DNA of 64,000 nucleotides from Thiobacillus sp. (GTDB taxonomy: Bacteria; Pseudomonadota; Gammaproteobacteria; Burkholderiales; Thiobacillaceae), in assembly GCA_019459325.1 (NCBI GenBank), contig JAIBFA010000005.1, positions 2,459-66,458 on the forward strand, given 5' to 3'. Position numbers and translations under genes: made by a program. The notes beneath the pieces were generated by a model. That model was not told where the DNA came from. It worked only from the letters and a program-made list of their open reading frames with translations, and did not search any database. Positions 3,195 to 46,570 of this stretch are shown one piece after another (position 1 is the first letter of the stretch; every line of letters starts with the position of its first letter).

Positions 3195-3691
3195 GATTCG
3201 TCTGCCTCCTCGAAGATTTTTTTCAGCGGGACCTCATAGCGCTGCTTGATTTCAGCGACCAGCGCCTCGGCGTCGCCCGTATCCAGGGTGTGCACGATCA
3301 GCGTTCGCTTGTCCGCGCTCAGGTGGGCCGACACGGTTCCCGGCGTCAGCGAGATGGTGTTGGCCAGCAGGCTGATGGCGAGATCGGTCTTGAGCGCCAG
3401 TGGCACCTCGACGAAAACCGGGCGCAGGCGGGCCGGCCCCCGCAGGATCAGGCGCGCGACGTGGAAGCTGCCGCGCACGATGTCGAGGATCAGGATGCCG
3501 AGGTAGTGCAGCAGGGTGAGCGGATGGCGGATGCGGATCTGTTCCGGCCAGAAAGGCGAGGTGACGAAGGGGATGAGCCAGCCGAGCAACGCGCCCAACA
3601 CGAGATGGCCGGCGGACAGCTGGTTGACCAGCAGCAGCCACAGAATGACCAGCGTGAGGGTCAGCAGGGGATGCGGCAGCAAACGTCTCAT
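3188..3691 (-). CDS. phaE: Mrp/Pha antiporter subunit E
   Basis: LLANTISLTPGT motif. Confidence 0.9.
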   Translation of the reverse strand: MRRLLPHPLLTLTLVILWLLLVNQLSAGHLVLGALLGWLIPFVTSPFWPEQIRIRHPLTLLHYLGILILDIVRGSFHVARLILRGPARLRPVFVEVPLALKTDLAISLLANTISLTPGTVSAHLSADKRTLIVHTLDTGDAEALVAEIKQRYEVPLKKIFEEADESC

Positions 3692-19092: not shown

Positions 19093-21834
19093 TTAAGGGG
19101 AAGCAGGCTTGTGATTGCGGCGGATCACGGCCTTCTCGATTTCAACCACGCTGTAGACGACGATCCCGAACAGGAAGATGCGACCCCAGGCGGCGAGGTC
19201 GAGCGCGGCGGTGGAAAACAGCGTCTGTAGCAGGGGCAGGTAGGTGAACAAACCCTGCAGTACGACCAGGATGCCGATAGCGATCAGCACGGCCCGGTTG
19301 CCGAAGAAGCCCGACCAGCCGACGACCGGCGCGGTGAGGCGACGGCAGTTGAAGAGATAGAAGATCTCGCCCATCACCAGGGCGTTGATGGCTGCAGTAC
19401 GGGCGATCTCGATCGGCACGCCGCGTTCCATTTCCCACAGGAACAGGCTGAGTGATCCGGTCACCAGAACCACCGTGACGAACGCGATGCGCCACAACAT
19501 GAAGCGCGTCAGCAGCGGCTCGTTCGGGTTGCGCGGCGGCTGGCGCTTGGCTTCGGGCTCGGGGCGCTCTAAGGCCAGCGCCAGCGCCAGCGTGACCGCC
19601 GTCACCATGTTGACCCACAGGATCTGCACCGGGGTAATCGGCAGGGTGAGCCCGAGCAGGATTGCGATCAGCACCATGCCGGCCTGGGCCATGTTGGTGG
19701 GCAGGATGAACACGATGGCCTTCTTCAGGTTGCCGTAGACGGTGCGGCCTTCCTCCACCGCGTGCGCGATCGAAGCGAAATTGTCGTCGGCCAGCACCAT
19801 TTCCGCCGCTTCCTTGGCGGCCTCGGTCCCCTTCTTGCCCATAGCCACGCCGACGTCGGCGCGCCGCAGTGCCGGCGCGTCGTTGACGCCGTCGCCGGTC
19901 ATCGCGGTGACGTGCCCCAGGCTTTGGAGGGCTTCGACCAGACGCAGCTTATGTTCCGGACTGGCTCGGGCGAAGATGTCGGTCTCGGCCACCACCTCGC
20001 GCAGGCGATCGTCATCGAGGGCCTCGATCTCGGCGCCGGTTACGGCGCGTCCCGATGCGCTGAGCCCGAGCTGGTTGCCGATGGCCTGCGCCGTGGCGGC
20101 GTGGTCGCCGGTGATCATCTTGACCCGGATGCCGGCGGCGCGGCAGGTGGCGACCGCCTGGATGGCTTCCTCGCGCGGCGGGTCGGCCAGCCCCAGCACC
20201 GCCAGCAGGGTGAAGCCGCCGTCCTCGATATCGGAAAAATTCAGCGTCGTCGTGGTTTCGTGCCGCACCGCCAGCGCCAGCAGCCGCATGCCCTGGGCGG
20301 CGGCTTCCTCCATGCGCGCATGCCAGAAACCGGGATCGAGCGGCGCCTCGCCGTCCGTGCTGCGCTGCGTCTCGCACAGCGCGAGCACCCGCTCCGGCGC
20401 GCCCTTGAGATAAATGAAGCCGCGCCCGGCGTGGTCGTGGTTGAGCGTGGCCATGAACCGGTGCTCGGACTCGAACGGGATGACGTCGCTGCGCGGCAGC
20501 GCTTCGCGGGTCTGGCGCGGGTCGAGCCCGGCCTTCATCGCCAGAGTCAGCAGCGCTCCTTCGGTGGGGTCGCCGGCCAGCTGCCAGCCGGCGTCGGTAT
20601 CGCGCAGCTCGGCGTCGTTGCACAGCAGGGCGGCGTGCGCCACGTCCTGCAGCAGGGGGGGCTCGAGGTCGATCGGCTCGCCGTCGCGGCTGAAGCCGCC
20701 TTCGGGCGCGTAACCGCTGCCCGACACCTCGAACACGCCGTCGGCGCCGATGACGGTCTGCACCGTCATTTCGTTGCGCGTGAGAGTGCCGGTCTTGTCC
20801 GAGCAGATGACGCTGACCGCGCCCAGCGTTTCCACCGCGGGCAGGCGGCGGATGATGGCGTGGCGGTGCGCCATGCGGGTGACGCCGATGGCGAGCGTGA
20901 TGGTCATGATCGCCGGCAGGCCTTCGGGGATCGCGGCTACCGCAAGACCCACCGCGGCGAGGAACATGTCGCTCGCCGGGTATTCGCGCACCCATACGCC
21001 GAAGCCGAAGATCAGCACCGACAGCAGAACGATCACGCCAGCCAGCCACTGGCCGAAGCGCGTCATCAGCTTCAGGAGCGGCGTGGTGAGCTTCTCGACC
21101 GTCGCCAGGAGCGTGCTGATGCGTCCCAGCTCGGTTCCGGTGCCGGTGGCCGTCACCACGCCGGCGCCCTGGCCGTAGGTGACCAGCGTGCCCGACCAGG
21201 CCATGCTGGCACGGTCGCCGAGTGCTGCGTCTTCCGCCACCGCATCGACCTGCTTGTCGACTGCGAGCGATTCGCCGGTCAGCGCGGCTTCCATCACCCG
21301 CAGGCTCTTGACGTCGATGAGTCGAATATCGGCGGGCACGCGGTCGCCCGAAGCCAGGTGCACGATGTCGCCCGGCACCAGCTCCTCGGCGGGGATCTCG
21401 TGGCGCTCGCCGGCGCGGGTGACGATGGCGTGCGGCGACAGCATGCTGCGGATGGCGTCGAGCGCTTCTTCGGCGCGGCCCTCCTGGATGAAGCCGATCA
21501 CCGCGTTGATGATGACCACGCCGAAGATCACGCCGGAATCGAGCCAGTGGCCGAGCAGGGCGGTGATCACGCCGGCGGCCAACAGCACATAAATCAGCAC
21601 ATTGTGGAACTGCAGCAGCAGGCGCTGCCAGGCAGGCTGGCGCTGTGGCGGCGGCAGGCGATTGTCGCCGTATTGCGCGCGCCGGGTCTCGACGGCGTCC
21701 GGAGTCAGGCCTGTGCGCGGCACCTCCAGCCGGGTCAGGGTGGCGCTGGCGGACAGGCTGTGCCAGCGCGGCGGATGTTCGTTTGTTTGCAAGCGAGGCT
21801 CCGTTCGGTCGGCGTACCAGTAGAATTCTGGCAC
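19093..21834 (-). CDS. P-type (IIA-like) cation-transporting ATPase
   Basis: TGES, PEGL, DKTGTLT, KGAPE, TGD, GDGVND; start uncertain. Confidence 0.93.
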   Translation of the reverse strand: MPEFYWYADRTEPRLQTNEHPPRWHSLSASATLTRLEVPRTGLTPDAVETRRAQYGDNRLPPPQRQPAWQRLLLQFHNVLIYVLLAAGVITALLGHWLDSGVIFGVVIINAVIGFIQEGRAEEALDAIRSMLSPHAIVTRAGERHEIPAEELVPGDIVHLASGDRVPADIRLIDVKSLRVMEAALTGESLAVDKQVDAVAEDAALGDRASMAWSGTLVTYGQGAGVVTATGTGTELGRISTLLATVEKLTTPLLKLMTRFGQWLAGVIVLLSVLIFGFGVWVREYPASDMFLAAVGLAVAAIPEGLPAIMTITLAIGVTRMAHRHAIIRRLPAVETLGAVSVICSDKTGTLTRNEMTVQTVIGADGVFEVSGSGYAPEGGFSRDGEPIDLEPPLLQDVAHAALLCNDAELRDTDAGWQLAGDPTEGALLTLAMKAGLDPRQTREALPRSDVIPFESEHRFMATLNHDHAGRGFIYLKGAPERVLALCETQRSTDGEAPLDPGFWHARMEEAAAQGMRLLALAVRHETTTTLNFSDIEDGGFTLLAVLGLADPPREEAIQAVATCRAAGIRVKMITGDHAATAQAIGNQLGLSASGRAVTGAEIEALDDDRLREVVAETDIFARASPEHKLRLVEALQSLGHVTAMTGDGVNDAPALRRADVGVAMGKKGTEAAKEAAEMVLADDNFASIAHAVEEGRTVYGNLKKAIVFILPTNMAQAGMVLIAILLGLTLPITPVQILWVNMVTAVTLALALALERPEPEAKRQPPRNPNEPLLTRFMLWRIAFVTVVLVTGSLSLFLWEMERGVPIEIARTAAINALVMGEIFYLFNCRRLTAPVVGWSGFFGNRAVLIAIGILVVLQGLFTYLPLLQTLFSTAALDLAAWGRIFLFGIVVYSVVEIEKAVIRRNHKPASP

Positions 21835-23781: not shown

Positions 23782-26458
23782 GCGCAGCGAACAGCACTGG
23801 CATTGCCTCGACAGCGCGGCGGCCGCTGCGCAACTGGAGAGCGATCTCAAGGCGGGGCTGACCGCCGATGCGGCTGCAAGGCGGCTTGAAGAGGCCGGTC
23901 CCAACGCGCTGCTGGAGGCCGGCCGGCGCCATCCGCTCGCCATGCTGGCGTCGCAGTTCACCGCTTTCATGATCCTGGTGCTGATCGCCGCCGCGGTCAT
24001 CGCCGGCATCATCGGCGAGCCGCAGGACACCATCGCCATCGTGGTCATCGTGTTTCTCAATGGCATCATCGGCTTCATCCAGGAATACCGTGCCGAACGC
24101 GCGATGGCGGCGCTGAAGCAGATGGCCAGCCCGCAGGCCCGCGTGATCCGCGGCGGGCAGCCCGGCATGATCGACGCGACGGGGCTGGTGCCCGGCGACC
24201 TGGTGGAACTGGAAGCCGGCAATATCCTGCCGGCCGACCTGCGACTGACCGAACTGGCCTCGCTCAAGGTCGACGAGTCCGCGCTCACCGGCGAATCGCA
24301 GCCCGTCGACAAGCAGCTCACACCGTTGTCAGAGACCGATCTGCCACTCGGTGACCGCCTCAACCTCGCCTACAAGGGAACCATCGTGACTTACGGCCGT
24401 GCGCGCGGGCTGGTGGTGGCGACCGGCATGCGGACCGAGCTGGGTAAAATCGCCGCGCTGCTGTCAGGGGAATCAGGCAAGACGCCGCTGCAAAAGCGCC
24501 TGGCCCGCTTCGGCCAGCATCTGGCGGTGGTGGTGCTGGCGATCTGCGCGATCATTTTCGCCGCCGGCTGGCTGCGCGGCGAACCGCCGCTGGTGATGCT
24601 GCTCACCGCCATCAGCCTGGCCGTGGCCGCCATTCCCGAAGCGCTACCCGCGGTGGTTACCATTTCGCTCGCGCTGGGGGCCGCGCGCCTGGTGAAGCAG
24701 AACGTGCTGATCCGTCGCCTGCCCGCAGTGGAAACGCTGGGTTCGGTGACCTTCATCTGTTCCGACAAGACCGGCACGCTGACGCAAAACCGCATGCATG
24801 TCGATTGCGTGCTGGCCGCCGGAGAAACCCGATCCGGCCTGCAGGACATATACGATTCCACACGCACTTCAGCGCGTAGTGGATCGGAGTCCTATAGGGC
24901 GACGGCATCGCCCTGGCGTGAACTCGGCATGGCGATGGCGCTGTGCAACGATGCCGTCGCCGACGCAGACGGAAAGCTGAGCGGCGACCCCACCGAGACC
25001 GCCTTGCTCGAAGCCGCACAGGCGGCCGGATTCAGCAAGACCGAATGGCAGGAAACCCTGCCGCGCCAGGCCGAACTTCCTTTCGATTCCGAGCGTGCGC
25101 GCATGAGCACACTGCATCGCGAGGGCGAGGCGGTGCTGATGCTGGTGAAGGGCGCACCCGAGGGCGTGCTGTCGCTGTGCGTCGATCAGCTGGTCGCTGA
25201 TGGCGTGAAACCGATCGACCAGGCGGCGCTGCAGGACACAGCCGAACACCTGGCCGCGCAGGGCCTGCGCGTGCTGGCTTTCGCACTGAAGCGGCTGCCG
25301 CGCATGCCGGACACGCTCGATGCCGCTGCGCTGGAGGATGGACTCACCTTCATCGGGCTCGCCGGCCTGATCGATCCGCCTCGCCCCGAGGCTGCGGAGT
25401 CGGTCGCTGCCTGCAAGGCAGCCGGCATCATCCCGGTGATGATCACCGGCGACCATCCGGCCACTGCGCGCGCCATCGCAAGCCGATTGGGCATCATCGA
25501 AGACGGCGGCAAGGTGCTGACCGGCAGCGAGCTTGCGCAGCTGTCGCTTGAGGCATTCGAACGCGAGGTGGAATCGGTACGGGTGTATGCGCGCATCAAC
25601 CCGGAACAGAAGATCAAGATCGTGCAGGCGCTGCAGGACAACGGTGAATTCGTCGCCATGACCGGCGACGGCGTGAACGACGCGCCGGCGCTGAAAATGG
25701 CCGACATCGGCGTCGCCATGGGCAAGGGGGGCACCGACGTCGCGCGCGAGGCGGCGCACATGACGCTGCTGGACGACAACTTTGCCACCATCGTGACGGC
25801 CGTGCGCGAAGGCCGCCGCATCTTCGACAACATCCGCAAGTTCGTCAAATACACGATGACGAGCAACTCGGGCGAGATCTGGACCATCTTCCTCGCGCCC
25901 TTCCTCGGCCTGCCGATCCCGCTGCTGCCGATTCACATTTTGTGGATCAACCTGGTCACCGACGGCCTGCCGGGGCTGGCACTTGCCGGCGAGCGCGCCG
26001 AGCGCAACGTCATGCAGCGGCCGCCGCGCCCGCCGAAGGAAAGCATCTTTGCCCACGGCATGTGGCAGCACATCCTGTGGGTCGGGCTCCTGATGGGCGG
26101 CGTCACCTTGCTGACGCAGGCGTGGGCGCTCCACACCGGTTCCGCGCACTGGCAGAGCATGGTGTTCACCGTGCTCACGCTGTCGCAGCTGGGCCACGTG
26201 CTGGCGATCCGCTCCGAGCGCGAATCGCTGTTCGCCCTGGGCGTGCTGTCCAACTGGCTGCTGATCGGTGCCCTGCTGCTGACCTTTGCGCTGCAAATGG
26301 CCGTGCTTTACGTGCCCTGGCTCAACCCCATCTTCAGGACCGAGCCCTTGAGCCTGGGCGAACTGGCCGCGTGCCTGGCCCTGTCCTCGGTGGTGTTTTT
26401 CGGGGTGGAATTCGAGAAGTGGATGGTGCGGCGCGGCTGGCTGTACAACAGCCGCTAG
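23771..26458 (+). CDS. Ca2+-type P-type IIA ATPase carrying an in-frame repeat-derived peptide
   Basis: TGES, PEAL, DKTGTLT, KGAPE, GDGVND, TSNSGE, INLVTDGLP. Confidence 0.93.
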   Translation: MATERSEQHWHCLDSAAAAAQLESDLKAGLTADAAARRLEEAGPNALLEAGRRHPLAMLASQFTAFMILVLIAAAVIAGIIGEPQDTIAIVVIVFLNGIIGFIQEYRAERAMAALKQMASPQARVIRGGQPGMIDATGLVPGDLVELEAGNILPADLRLTELASLKVDESALTGESQPVDKQLTPLSETDLPLGDRLNLAYKGTIVTYGRARGLVVATGMRTELGKIAALLSGESGKTPLQKRLARFGQHLAVVVLAICAIIFAAGWLRGEPPLVMLLTAISLAVAAIPEALPAVVTISLALGAARLVKQNVLIRRLPAVETLGSVTFICSDKTGTLTQNRMHVDCVLAAGETRSGLQDIYDSTRTSARSGSESYRATASPWRELGMAMALCNDAVADADGKLSGDPTETALLEAAQAAGFSKTEWQETLPRQAELPFDSERARMSTLHREGEAVLMLVKGAPEGVLSLCVDQLVADGVKPIDQAALQDTAEHLAAQGLRVLAFALKRLPRMPDTLDAAALEDGLTFIGLAGLIDPPRPEAAESVAACKAAGIIPVMITGDHPATARAIASRLGIIEDGGKVLTGSELAQLSLEAFEREVESVRVYARINPEQKIKIVQALQDNGEFVAMTGDGVNDAPALKMADIGVAMGKGGTDVAREAAHMTLLDDNFATIVTAVREGRRIFDNIRKFVKYTMTSNSGEIWTIFLAPFLGLPIPLLPIHILWINLVTDGLPGLALAGERAERNVMQRPPRPPKESIFAHGMWQHILWVGLLMGGVTLLTQAWALHTGSAHWQSMVFTVLTLSQLGHVLAIRSERESLFALGVLSNWLLIGALLLTFALQMAVLYVPWLNPIFRTEPLSLGELAACLALSSVVFFGVEFEKWMVRRGWLYNSR
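24850..24899 (+). repeat. Intragenic palindromic element, copy 1
   Basis: 42/50 nt identical, ungapped, to 36914..36963; hairpin CCAC-ACGCAC-TTCA-GCGCGT-A-GTGG. Confidence 0.85.
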
Positions 26459-34058: not shown

Positions 34059-37000
34059 ATGACCGTTTCTCCAGCGCTTTCCCCGTTTCTGCGCCGCGCG
34101 TCGCGCTGGCTCGCAGCCGTGGCTGCGCTCGCTGCCCTGGGCTTTGCGACGGCTGCGGCACTGATGTTTTTCTGGGTGTTGCCGAATATTGCCGAGCACC
34201 GCGACACGGTGGCCAGCCTGATGTCGCGCGCGCTGGGACAGCGTGTGACGCTGGAAGCGGTGTCGGGGGTGTGGCAGCAGACGCGTCCTGAATTCCGCTT
34301 GCGGGGTGTGAGCCTGTATGACCGGCAGAATCGCCCGGCGCTTTATCTGCCGGAACTGAACGCGTCGTTTGCCTGGCGTTCGCTGCTGTTTCTGGAACCG
34401 CGTTTCAACCGCATCGAGTTGCAAGGGCTGACCTTGGGCGTGCGGCGCGCGCGCGATGGACATTTCTATGTCGGCGGCATCCCGATCAACCCGGCCGACC
34501 CTGACAGCGGTTTTTCCAGCTGGCTGCTGCGGCAGGGCCGGGTGCATGTTAGCCAGGCTGCGCTCACCTGGCAGGACGAGGTGCGCAATGCCCCGCCGCT
34601 GATTCTGACCGACGTCGATTTCACCCTGACCAATTCGCGCCGCAGTCATCGCCTGCAATTTCATGCGGTTCCGCCGGCCAGTCTGGCGCGACCGCTGGCG
34701 ATCGATGCGAAGCTGACCGCGCGCGATGTGGACGATATCGCGACCTGGAACGGCACCATCGGCACGACCGTTGCCGGGGTGTCGTTTTCGCGTCTCGCCA
34801 CCTGGCTGGCGGTGCCGTATCAGCCGCAACAGGGCTGGGGCACGTTGAATTTACAGTTCAGCGTGATGCGAGGCAGGTTTGCCGGGATGACAGCGGGAAT
34901 GGACCTGCGCGCGATTGAAACCGTTCTGGGCGACGGCCTGCCTGCCCTGCGGCTGGCGCGGGTACGCGGCCAGGCGGTGTGGGAGCGCGGTCCCGACCGT
35001 CAGCGTGTGGCGTTCGAAAACCTGCGCGTGGCGCGGCCGGGTGCCGCGTTGGGCGCCCCGTTCAATGCGGGCCTGGCGTGGAGCGCCACTTCGCGCGAAC
35101 TCAGGGCAAAGGCACTCAACCTGAGCGGCTGGCAATCGTTGCTGCCGAGCCTGCCGATGGATGCGGCCTTGCGCGTACGCCTGCACACCCTGCAACCGCA
35201 AGGGCGGTTCGACGACTTGATGTTGCGCTGGGTCGGGGCCGAGCCAGGCATCGACAACTTCAGCATTGCGGCCCGCTTCAGCGGCCTGGGCGTAACGGCA
35301 GCGGACAAGCAACCGGGGCTGGCCAACCTCAGCGGGCACATCGAGGGGGACGCGCGCGCGGGCGTGTTCGAAATCGATTCGAAACAGCTGGGCCTCAGTC
35401 TGCCCAACCTGTTCCGCGAACCGTCGTTCGGATTCGACAGCCTGCACGCGCGCGGCAGTTGGAAGAAAACCCCGCGCGGCCGCCGCGTGACGCTGGGCGA
35501 AATGAGTTTCGCCAACCAGGATGCGGCGGGCACCGCCAAGGGCCATTACGAACTGATCGCCGGCCACCCCGGCATCATCGATCTGACGGCGCATCTGAGC
35601 CGCGCCGAGGGTACCGCGGTGTACCGCTACTTCCCGAAGAAGATTGGCGACCATACCGTCAACTGGGTGAAGCGCGGCGTCGTGGCCGGGCAATCCGACA
35701 ATGTGCAGCTGAACCTGAAAGGCGATCTGACGCAATTCCCGTTCGAACACGGCAACGGGGTGTTTCGTGTCGATGCGCAGGTCCGGAATGGGGTGGTCGA
35801 CTACGTGCAGGACTGGCCGCGGATCGACGGCATTCAGGCACGCGTGCTGTTCCAGGGCAAGACCATGGAGATCACCTCCAGCCAGGCACGAATTTACGGC
35901 GTGGCGCTATCGCCGGTGAAAGCAGTCATTCCGGATCTGATCCATCACGAAGAGCTGTTGACTGTCGACGGCGAGGCCAACGGTCCGATCCAGGACTTCA
36001 TCCGCTTTGCCAACTTCAGCCCGGTGGGCGAACGCCTGCGCGGTTTCACCGATGCCCTGGACGGCAGCGGGCCGATGAAACTGGCCCTGAAACTGCAGGT
36101 TCCGCTGCGCCACAGCCACGACACCACCCTGACAGGCCGGCTGTCGTTTCTGGGCAATACCCTGTTTCCGCCCGGCCTGCCGCGGCTCGACCAGACGCGC
36201 GGCAACATCGATTTCACCGGCGACAGCCTCAATGCGAACAACCTGACCGCGCAGTTTCTCGGCGGCCCCTTGCGCATCGACGCTGACACGCGAAACGGCT
36301 CGGTGCAGATTCTGGCGCAGGGCCGCGCCACTGCGACGGGCATGACACCCTGGCTGGGGGCGGCGTGGGGCAAGCGCCTGTCGGGCCAGACAAGCTGGCG
36401 TGGCCAAGTTGATCTGGACTCTGCAGGAGATCGCATCCGCATCGAATCCGATCTGGTGGGGCTGGGCGCCAGCCTGCCGGCACCGCTGGCGAAGACCGCC
36501 GCGCAGCCGCTGCCGCTGCGCGTGAGCATCCAGCCGCAGGGTGATGGCCGGCAGCATGCGGTGCGGCTGGGCCAACCCGTCAGCGCCGTGTGGCGCAGCA
36601 GCGCGACAGGCGGCTTTGATCGCGGCGAAATCCGCTTTGGCGGGCAGGCGGTCATGCCGGCCGAGCCCGGCTTGCGGCTGTCCGGCAGCGGGCGCGGCCT
36701 GGACATTTCGGGCTGGACGGCGCTGCTGCCCAAGGGTGAAGACAAGGCGGCCTTGCCGTTGTCCTCCATCGATCTCGGCTTCGAGTCGTTTGATCTGATG
36801 GGGCGGCGCTATCAGGGGGTGCGTCTGCAGGGGCGCACCCGCAACGGCCTGTTGCGCACCCAGGTGACCGGGCGCGAACTGAACGGCGTGCTGACCTATC
36901 GGCCGGCCGGGGCATACGATTCCACCGGGGCTTCAGCCCGTAGTGGATCAGAGTCCTCCAGGGAGCAGCCCGCCCGCGTGTCGGCGCAGTTCAAGCAGCT

Positions 37001-46469: not shown

Positions 46470-46563
46470 GGCGGGTCTCCCCGCATGGCTAAGTCGTGAA
46501 TCGGGTCAGGTCCGGAAGGAAGCAGCCCCAGCGACCGATTCCAGTGCCGGGGTAAGGCTCGCC
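46470..46563 (+). ncRNA. ffs: Signal recognition particle RNA (4.5S)
   Basis: GGTCAGGTCCGGAAGGAAGCAGCC domain IV; ends pair; TAAAAT -10 at 46458; upstream of dnaX. Confidence 0.93.
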
Positions 46564-46570
46564 ACTTTTC

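Follow-up and report, generated by a model that had tools for sequence, protein, structure and literature searches.

A short hairpin repeat inserted in frame in unrelated Thiobacillus genes, likely a small non-autonomous mobile element

The 64,000-nucleotide stretch of a Thiobacillus sp. genome analysed here (assembly GCA_019459325.1, contig JAIBFA010000005.1, positions 2,459 to 66,458 of the forward strand; hereafter, the window) raises a simple question: why do two unrelated genes, one encoding a P-type cation ATPase and the other the protein YhdP, carry nearly the same short segment of DNA read in the same frame? An initial annotation, made from the letters of the sequence, had paired positions 24850-24899 with 36914-36963. 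The coordinates, the ungapped match at 42 out of 50 nucleotides, the common frame and the encoded peptides all proved accurate, and a 35-base pattern allowing up to three mismatches matched nowhere else in the window (0.00 matches expected from 100 shuffles). Both segments are copies of a dispersed hairpin repeat. We think it likely that the copy in the ATPase gene represents a small non-autonomous mobile element that enters, and probably leaves, its sites without target duplication, presumably through the action of an enzyme encoded elsewhere.

A dispersed repeat with a covarying hairpin

The genome containing the window (G000; 3.07 Mb in 112 contigs, 63% GC, 87.8% complete) harbours 24 copies of the repeat, including the two in the window, as detected with a covariance model (CM R1) built from 18 of the 22 matches that an nhmmer search of G000 returned at E<1e-3. 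Extending the covariance-model search to relatives, as the initial annotation had advised, uncovered 829 copies in 61 genomes of the genus (0-63 per genome, median 9); 58 genomes have copies, and one of the three devoid of them is a closed single contig. The proposal of a very short repeat family placed in frame in unrelated proteins is thereby borne out. At the level of the order, 12 of the 151 genomes sampled, counting G000, carry copies, with five other families represented, and none turned up in the two remaining genera sampled from the family to which the window belongs. A pattern scan using one genome per species yielded at least 117 stretches, the titles listed being those of Thiobacillus, Sulfuricella, Sulfuriferula, Hydrogenophilales or unclassified proteobacterial records.

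From 5' to 3', the unit is composed of a constant GCATACGA, a stem of 14 bp interrupted by two bulges of one base each and capped by a TTCA loop, a constant TCGGAGTCC, and a mini-hairpin of 3-4 bp. In the alignment of the same 18 copies used for the model, 93.1% of the cells are paired, with compensatory changes in both partners at 8 of the 14 pairs. For four of the five measures, the observed values were not attained in any of 500 shuffles, and controls with slid partners gave 28-36% paired cells. The outer stems are swapped whole between subfamilies (TCCAC/GTGGA, TCCGC/GCGGA, and CTTTC/GAAAG). A GTAG motif is conserved in the 3' arm, where its T and G are paired and its A is bulged. The TTCA-loop hairpin with a CCAC/GTGG outer stem described from the two window copies was reproduced by folding, and the covarying pair reported for them (C24865-G24874 versus G36929-C36938) agrees with the sequence as read directly. 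Folded as DNA, three intergenic copies reach -11.9 to -15.8 kcal/mol (z -4.1 to -5.3), compared with -9.5 kcal/mol (z -3.1) for the ATPase copy and -6.7 kcal/mol (z -1.1) for the YhdP copy. The median for YhdP copies, -9.6 kcal/mol (n=13), is also weaker than the values of the three intergenic ones, a weak indication of hairpin decay in old gene copies. The family is thus a real multi-copy repeat with a covarying hairpin, spread across Thiobacillus-type genomes.

Head-to-tail tandems define a unit length of 51 bases (17 codons) for the form with the tail CC-TTTA-GGG. A variant with the tail CCCC-TTGT-GGGG measures 54 bases (18 codons), and a 72-base form corresponds to the unit plus a nested 21-base module. 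Multiples of three (51, 54 or 72 bases) account for 33 of the 35 head-to-tail periods of up to 72 bases (14 of 51, 18 of 54, and one each of 72, 56 and 68), a property that may help copies to survive in genes. Clustered copies in G000 are all on one strand.

The repeat is also found in association with other small repeats. The 21-base module (about ACCCACAAGGGGCATCGCGAT) lies in the unit tail, adding seven more codons, in the yhdP gene of G011 (locus L160), in contig C35 of G000 (3414-3477, L016) and at L099:210-282. Elsewhere, the unit is nested at a constant internal position in another palindromic repeat (GTCATTGCGAGC...GCGAAGC, followed by the unit and then by AATCCAG...), as in the G000 contigs C14 (18.5 kb), C45 (19.2 kb), C54 (17.1 kb) and C70 (0.65 kb; L014, L015, L019, and L018, respectively) and at about ten further loci. 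Other copies occupy the loop of CTCCCTTCTCCC...GGGAGAAGG hairpins, forming repeats within repeats.

Most copies are intergenic. Using a rule that combines open reading frames (ORFs) and G+C content at third codon positions (GC3), we assigned to genes 19 of the 119 copies taken from the matches listed in the species scan and 13 of the 100 present in a set of 80 larger genus loci, an intragenic share of about 13-16%. All 12 host ORFs of the 100-copy set have Pfam matches, the only ORF submitted that lacked one being an alternative-strand ORF. Pfam domains were found around or across the insert in RnfC-like, RsmE, PFOR, UvrD, VWA, Fmt, BioD, HI0933-like flavoprotein, ABC-F, GAF kinase, KdsB, GGDEF-EAL, FliF, CheA-like, and methyltransferase genes. 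Four frames are read in genes, with both orientations in use: AYDSTRASARSGSESFR, HTTPHALQRVVDRSPLG, ALKDSDPLRAEARVESY and, for the 54-base form, PHKGTPTFYGLKPVKDRM; by direct reading, the remaining frames of the unit contain stops. This frame usage is the pattern that random insertion followed by selection would leave. The initial suggestion that the element writes Ser-rich peptides into proteins is not supported: the Ser-rich read-out is one of at least four frames found in genes, and most copies lie outside them.

Two groups of host genes deserve a separate mention. In two species, an HI0933-like flavoprotein gene (L220:9143-10531 and L249:9184-10530) contains the element but with its orientation reversed: two antisense copies are present in one species and a single sense copy in the other, which are independent hits on one gene family. 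A D-Ala-D-Ala carboxypeptidase (Peptidase_S13) gene (L017:5001-5111, in contig C44 of G000, and L068) has two tandem copies at its 3' end, where the open frame continues through both copies, which seem to replace or extend the C-terminus.

Stems that covary next to single-stranded segments that stay constant fit recognition by a protein or an RNA, and, together with the predominance of intergenic copies, could denote a host-useful structured RNA or protein-binding site (e.g., an mRNA stabiliser or a nucleoid-protein site) spread by duplication, the copies in genes being accidental. We consider this quite unlikely. No Rfam family was found at the copies, either in five loci (E up to 1) or in a scan over the window (gathering score), and the hairpin is not followed by a U-tract. 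Copies show no clear bias in how they are oriented with respect to flanking genes (17 co-oriented and 13 anti-oriented copies, by a crude ORF/GC3 test in which many loci were unscorable). The variation in copy number within one genus, down to complete absence in three genomes, and the occurrence of copies nested in other repeats and in tandem arrays also argue against such a role.

Filled and empty sites in orthologous genes

In the ATPase, all four same-genus orthologues compared with that of G000 (G009, G002, G015, and G005; 79-90% identical) lack the same 17 residues and show one clean 51-base gap, which provides the empty site that the initial annotation had proposed to look for and delimits the insert to positions 24848-24898 (ATA...AGG; Table 1). 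The limits first suggested, a TA-bounded segment of 42 nucleotides and 14 codons with terminal inverted repeats, have to be abandoned: the insert comprises 51 bases and 17 codons, it shows no TA duplication, and terminal inverted repeats are not conserved across the family, a 6-base GACTCC/GGAGTC pair being present in one subtype only and missing from the CTTTC/GAAAG subtype. Metagenome contigs of relatives also display a net loss of 51 bases at this site (six joints in three runs). The TAC of the ATPase copy is the start of codon 361 and that of the YhdP copy the start of codon 953, so that the element has the same frame in both genes. As noticed initially, its codons are atypical of the host genes, with a GC3 of 47% in the ATPase insert versus 85% in the rest of the gene, and 53% versus 80% in yhdP.

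The insert begins 28 residues after D332, the phosphorylated Asp of the DKTGT motif. The best solved relative, the Listeria Ca-ATPase LMCA1, is 14 residues shorter in this stretch, which varies among orthologues. The insert would form a surface loop, probably a tolerated one at the start of the nucleotide-binding domain rather than a functional addition. A second, paralogous P-type ATPase (42% identical) is encoded just upstream on the other strand (window 19114-21780, minus strand; G000:C59:21572-24238). Elsewhere in the window, positions 46470-46566 of the plus strand encode a bacterial small signal recognition particle RNA (Rfam RF00169, 73.3 bits).

The YhdP site offers a broader view. Orthologues from 30 of the 58 matching genomes were compared: 16 are filled (that of G000 included), 2 are partial, and 12 are empty. 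Filled sites read GG(C/G)-GCATACGA...AGG-GAG and empty ones GGC-GAG, and the ends share only 1-3 G. All the YhdP copies have a private stem mismatch (AGGGGC against GCCCGT), missing from the other copies of the family, which points to one original insertion. On a tree of the 30 sequences (215 flanking columns, insert columns removed), the distribution of filled and empty states requires 8-9 changes, at least 6 of them forced by well-supported branches. This scattered presence suggests either repeated seamless loss or allele exchange by recombination. The closest relative of the window's genome according to PFOR (92%), FlgJ (96%) and YhdP (92%), G041, is empty at the YhdP, PFOR, and PIN sites.

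It is extremely improbable that the peptide shared by the two proteins is a selected protein module, that is, a convergent or exchanged coding motif, or that the match is an assembly artefact. The same frame and similar peptide in both proteins are what a module would produce, but the mostly intergenic location of the copies, the use of at least four frames in genes and the low GC3 of the inserts do not fit it. An artefact, for its part, is at odds with the YhdP insert being present in more than half of the genomes compared and with a metagenome contig that contains the filled ATPase form with 0 differences, although that run may be the source of the window DNA.

Other genes show the same kind of variation. 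Of the six genomes compared at PFOR, G000 and G009 have a 54-base insert that G041, G058, and G002 lack, and a gene for a PIN-domain protein carries an insert in G000, G058, and G005 and none in G009, G041, and G002. The FlgJ linker contains one to several copies that vary between species, with variable gap lengths. Clean presence and absence of 51 or 54 bases is thus shown at four gene loci (ATPase, YhdP, PFOR, and PIN), and FlgJ also varies. No target-site duplication was seen, filled and empty junctions at the YhdP, PFOR, and PIN sites having only 1-3 G in common. In the PFOR gene of G005 (L187), an unrelated 54-base palindrome (CCCTCTCCC...GGGAGAGGG type) occupies the same codon position as the element in L027:5000-5056, which makes this site either a hot spot for insertion or one of the few loops able to tolerate it.

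Could the repeat have spread passively, being no longer mobile or never enzyme-driven, by slippage, gene conversion and homologous recombination between species? The two partial YhdP sites are remnants with an in-frame deletion of 36 bases between GCCCG repeats, slippage could also produce tandem arrays, and no enzyme was found (see below). Moreover, identical copies within one genome mostly have larger flanking repeats in common, which implies that some of the spread may be duplication of composite repeats. However, new sites with unrelated flanks require an entry route, the ATPase copy being present in G000 alone among the five same-genus orthologues and 94% like another copy, and the repeated, exact loss of 51 bases flanked by a repeat of just 1-3 bases is hard to obtain by slippage. 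We therefore hold exclusively passive spread to be unlikely.

Table 1. Coordinates of the two copies of the repeat and of their host genes in the window
Feature	Position	Strand	Details
Copy 1 of the 51-base unit	24848..24898	+	In-frame IYDSTRTSARSGSESYR, ATPase residues 360-376; CM R1 73.2 bits; limits may shift 1-2 bases
Bulged hairpin of copy 1	24853..24886	+	TTCA loop; one A.C mismatch at 24866/24873; structure common to the family
Host gene 1, P-type cation ATPase (Ca-ATPase-like), 895 aa	23771..26458	+	Pfam Cation_ATPase_N, E1-E2_ATPase, Hydrolase, Cation_ATPase, Cation_ATPase_C
Copy 2 of the unit	36912..36962	+	In-frame AYDSTGASARSGSESSR, YhdP residues 952-968; CM R1 64.7 bits
Host gene 2, yhdP, 1278 aa	34059..37895	+	Pfam YhdP, E 2.4e-270

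Candidate enzymes and the case for mobility

The GC-rich hairpin and the conserved GTAG recall repetitive extragenic palindromic (REP) elements of the GTAG type, including their REPIN forms, mobilised by RAYT enzymes (Y1 tyrosine transposases), a link made in the initial annotation. HUH Y1 enzymes of the IS200/IS605 type insert DNA without target duplication and remove it seamlessly, a behaviour that the insertion and loss of the Thiobacillus unit recall, and the corresponding domain, Y1_Tnp, is present in 46 of the 61 genus genomes. Nevertheless, G000 has no Y1_Tnp gene (at 87.8% completeness), and the presence of the domain does not follow copy number (Spearman rho 0.014 over the 61 genomes): 9 genomes with at least 10 copies lack Y1_Tnp, and 11 with two copies or fewer possess it. 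No copy lies in any of 6 Y1_Tnp loci, and the two RAYT loci inspected (L183:1170-1938 and L184:1278-2347) are both bracketed by arrays of a different GTAG-tagged repeat (AAAGGGTAGCGTCCCCTTT), in the classical REP-RAYT arrangement. Copies of our element are arranged in head-to-tail tandems, not in inverted doublets (no formal search for inverted pairs was made), and the GTAG in its 3' arm is not the unpaired 5' tag by which PMC3733652 defines these repeats. We accordingly reject the RAYT link, and mobilisation of this family as a GTAG-type REP appears very unlikely.

A second candidate, the DUF559 nuclease, was likewise rejected. It is encoded in 22 of the 61 genus genomes and not in G000, and only 1 of 12 DUF559 loci has a copy, located 1.3 kb away and on one side.

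The reading that we favour, a small mobile element acting as a non-autonomous unit, would involve a trans-acting enzyme that recognizes the hairpin and moves the units, as their anatomy and clean junctions suggest. Entry, and probably exit, would occur without duplicating the target, and selection would filter the copies that land in genes, such that only those in stop-free frames and tolerant loops are retained. A more ambitious version, which we regard as doubtful, would make the family a new class of codon-phased hairpin mobile DNA. Its units, 17 or 18 codons long (51 or 54 bases) and free of stops in as many as four frames, would enter and exit genes seamlessly, without target duplication, by means of an enzyme unrelated to RAYT or DUF559, so that loops would be continually written into the proteins of a free-living bacterium and erased from them.

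Several observations weigh against mobility. No mobilising gene was found: Y1_Tnp and DUF559 are not associated with the element, and the 135 ORFs flanking copies contain no transposase domain, whole genomes not having been screened for all insertion sequence families. Neither plasmids, phages nor IMG/VR viral contigs contain copies, and transposition itself was not observed. An orientation bias relative to GC skew might have been expected from a single-strand mechanism; in G000, strand and local GC skew are distributed 13 against 4, and the bias is absent from 88 clusters of other genomes (41 against 47), local GC skew being a rough proxy. The flanks shared by identical copies count on the same side, and scattered presence and absence could reflect recombination between species instead of excision. 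Finally, the insert is presumed to be translated on the strength of its open frame.

Relation to known repeat families

Several families of small repeats resemble the Thiobacillus element in part. The Rickettsia palindromic elements (RPEs), reportedly described by Ogata et al. in 2000 and cited in PMC3733652, are similar in behaviour: they too are palindromic repeats located between genes and in frame within unrelated genes, adding peptides that are missing from orthologues, as here in the ATPase, YhdP, PFOR, PIN, and FlgJ. RPE-1 is more than 100 bases long, in contrast with the 51/54-base unit described here, whose host is a free-living GC-rich betaproteobacterium and whose copies form head-to-tail tandems. 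REPIN-RAYT systems, said to have been characterized by Nunvar in 2010 and by Bertels and Rainey in 2011, also consist of hairpin repeats, for which movement as single-stranded DNA without duplication of the target has been proposed, but inverted doublets are not the arrangement of the Thiobacillus element, which neither borders RAYT genes nor varies in number along with them. The small dispersed repeats of cyanobacteria, reportedly studied by Elhai et al. in 2008, are very short and insert into genes and into one another, like the 21-base module nested in the tails of our units; they belong to another lineage and differ in sequence. Unlike miniature inverted-repeat transposable elements (MITEs), the element has neither conserved terminal inverted repeats nor target-site duplications.

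The most direct comparison concerns intragenic REPs tagged by GTAG or CGTC (Di Nocera, De Gregorio, Rocco 2013, PMC3733652). In that description, GTAG REPs are units of 20-40 bases with an unpaired GTAG tag 5' of the hairpin. Similarities include small GC-rich hairpins with covarying stems, a mostly intergenic location with a minority of copies within ORFs and translated, and a UvrD host in both cases. The Thiobacillus unit differs from that description in having its GTAG within an arm instead of an unpaired end tag, in lacking a CGTC tag, and in being longer, with a second mini-hairpin and two constant single-stranded stretches.

The initial annotation knew of no such element in this lineage, and we found none in Rfam or in the literature searched, which yielded no paper with the strings of the element and none on repeats of Thiobacillus, subscription journals being outside the coverage. 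Since it lacks the defining features of GTAG REP/RAYT systems and of MITEs, matches no Rfam family and was not found in the literature, we classify the repeat as a new family within a kind already recognized, the intragenic REP/RPE-like elements.

Its description adds to the intragenic palindromic repeats a well-defined family that is easily searched, a covariance model being available, in a host genus of free-living, genetically tractable, sulfur-oxidising denitrifiers with many dated presence/absence sites for study. Three features stand out in combination: unit lengths that are multiples of three, recurrent exact loss at one site, and a lack of connection with either of the enzyme families usually proposed. 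Together, they make the family a usable system to ask by what means such repeats move and how new loops are tolerated by proteins. For annotators, the consequence is that low-complexity inserts of 17-18 residues should be expected in Thiobacillus proteins.

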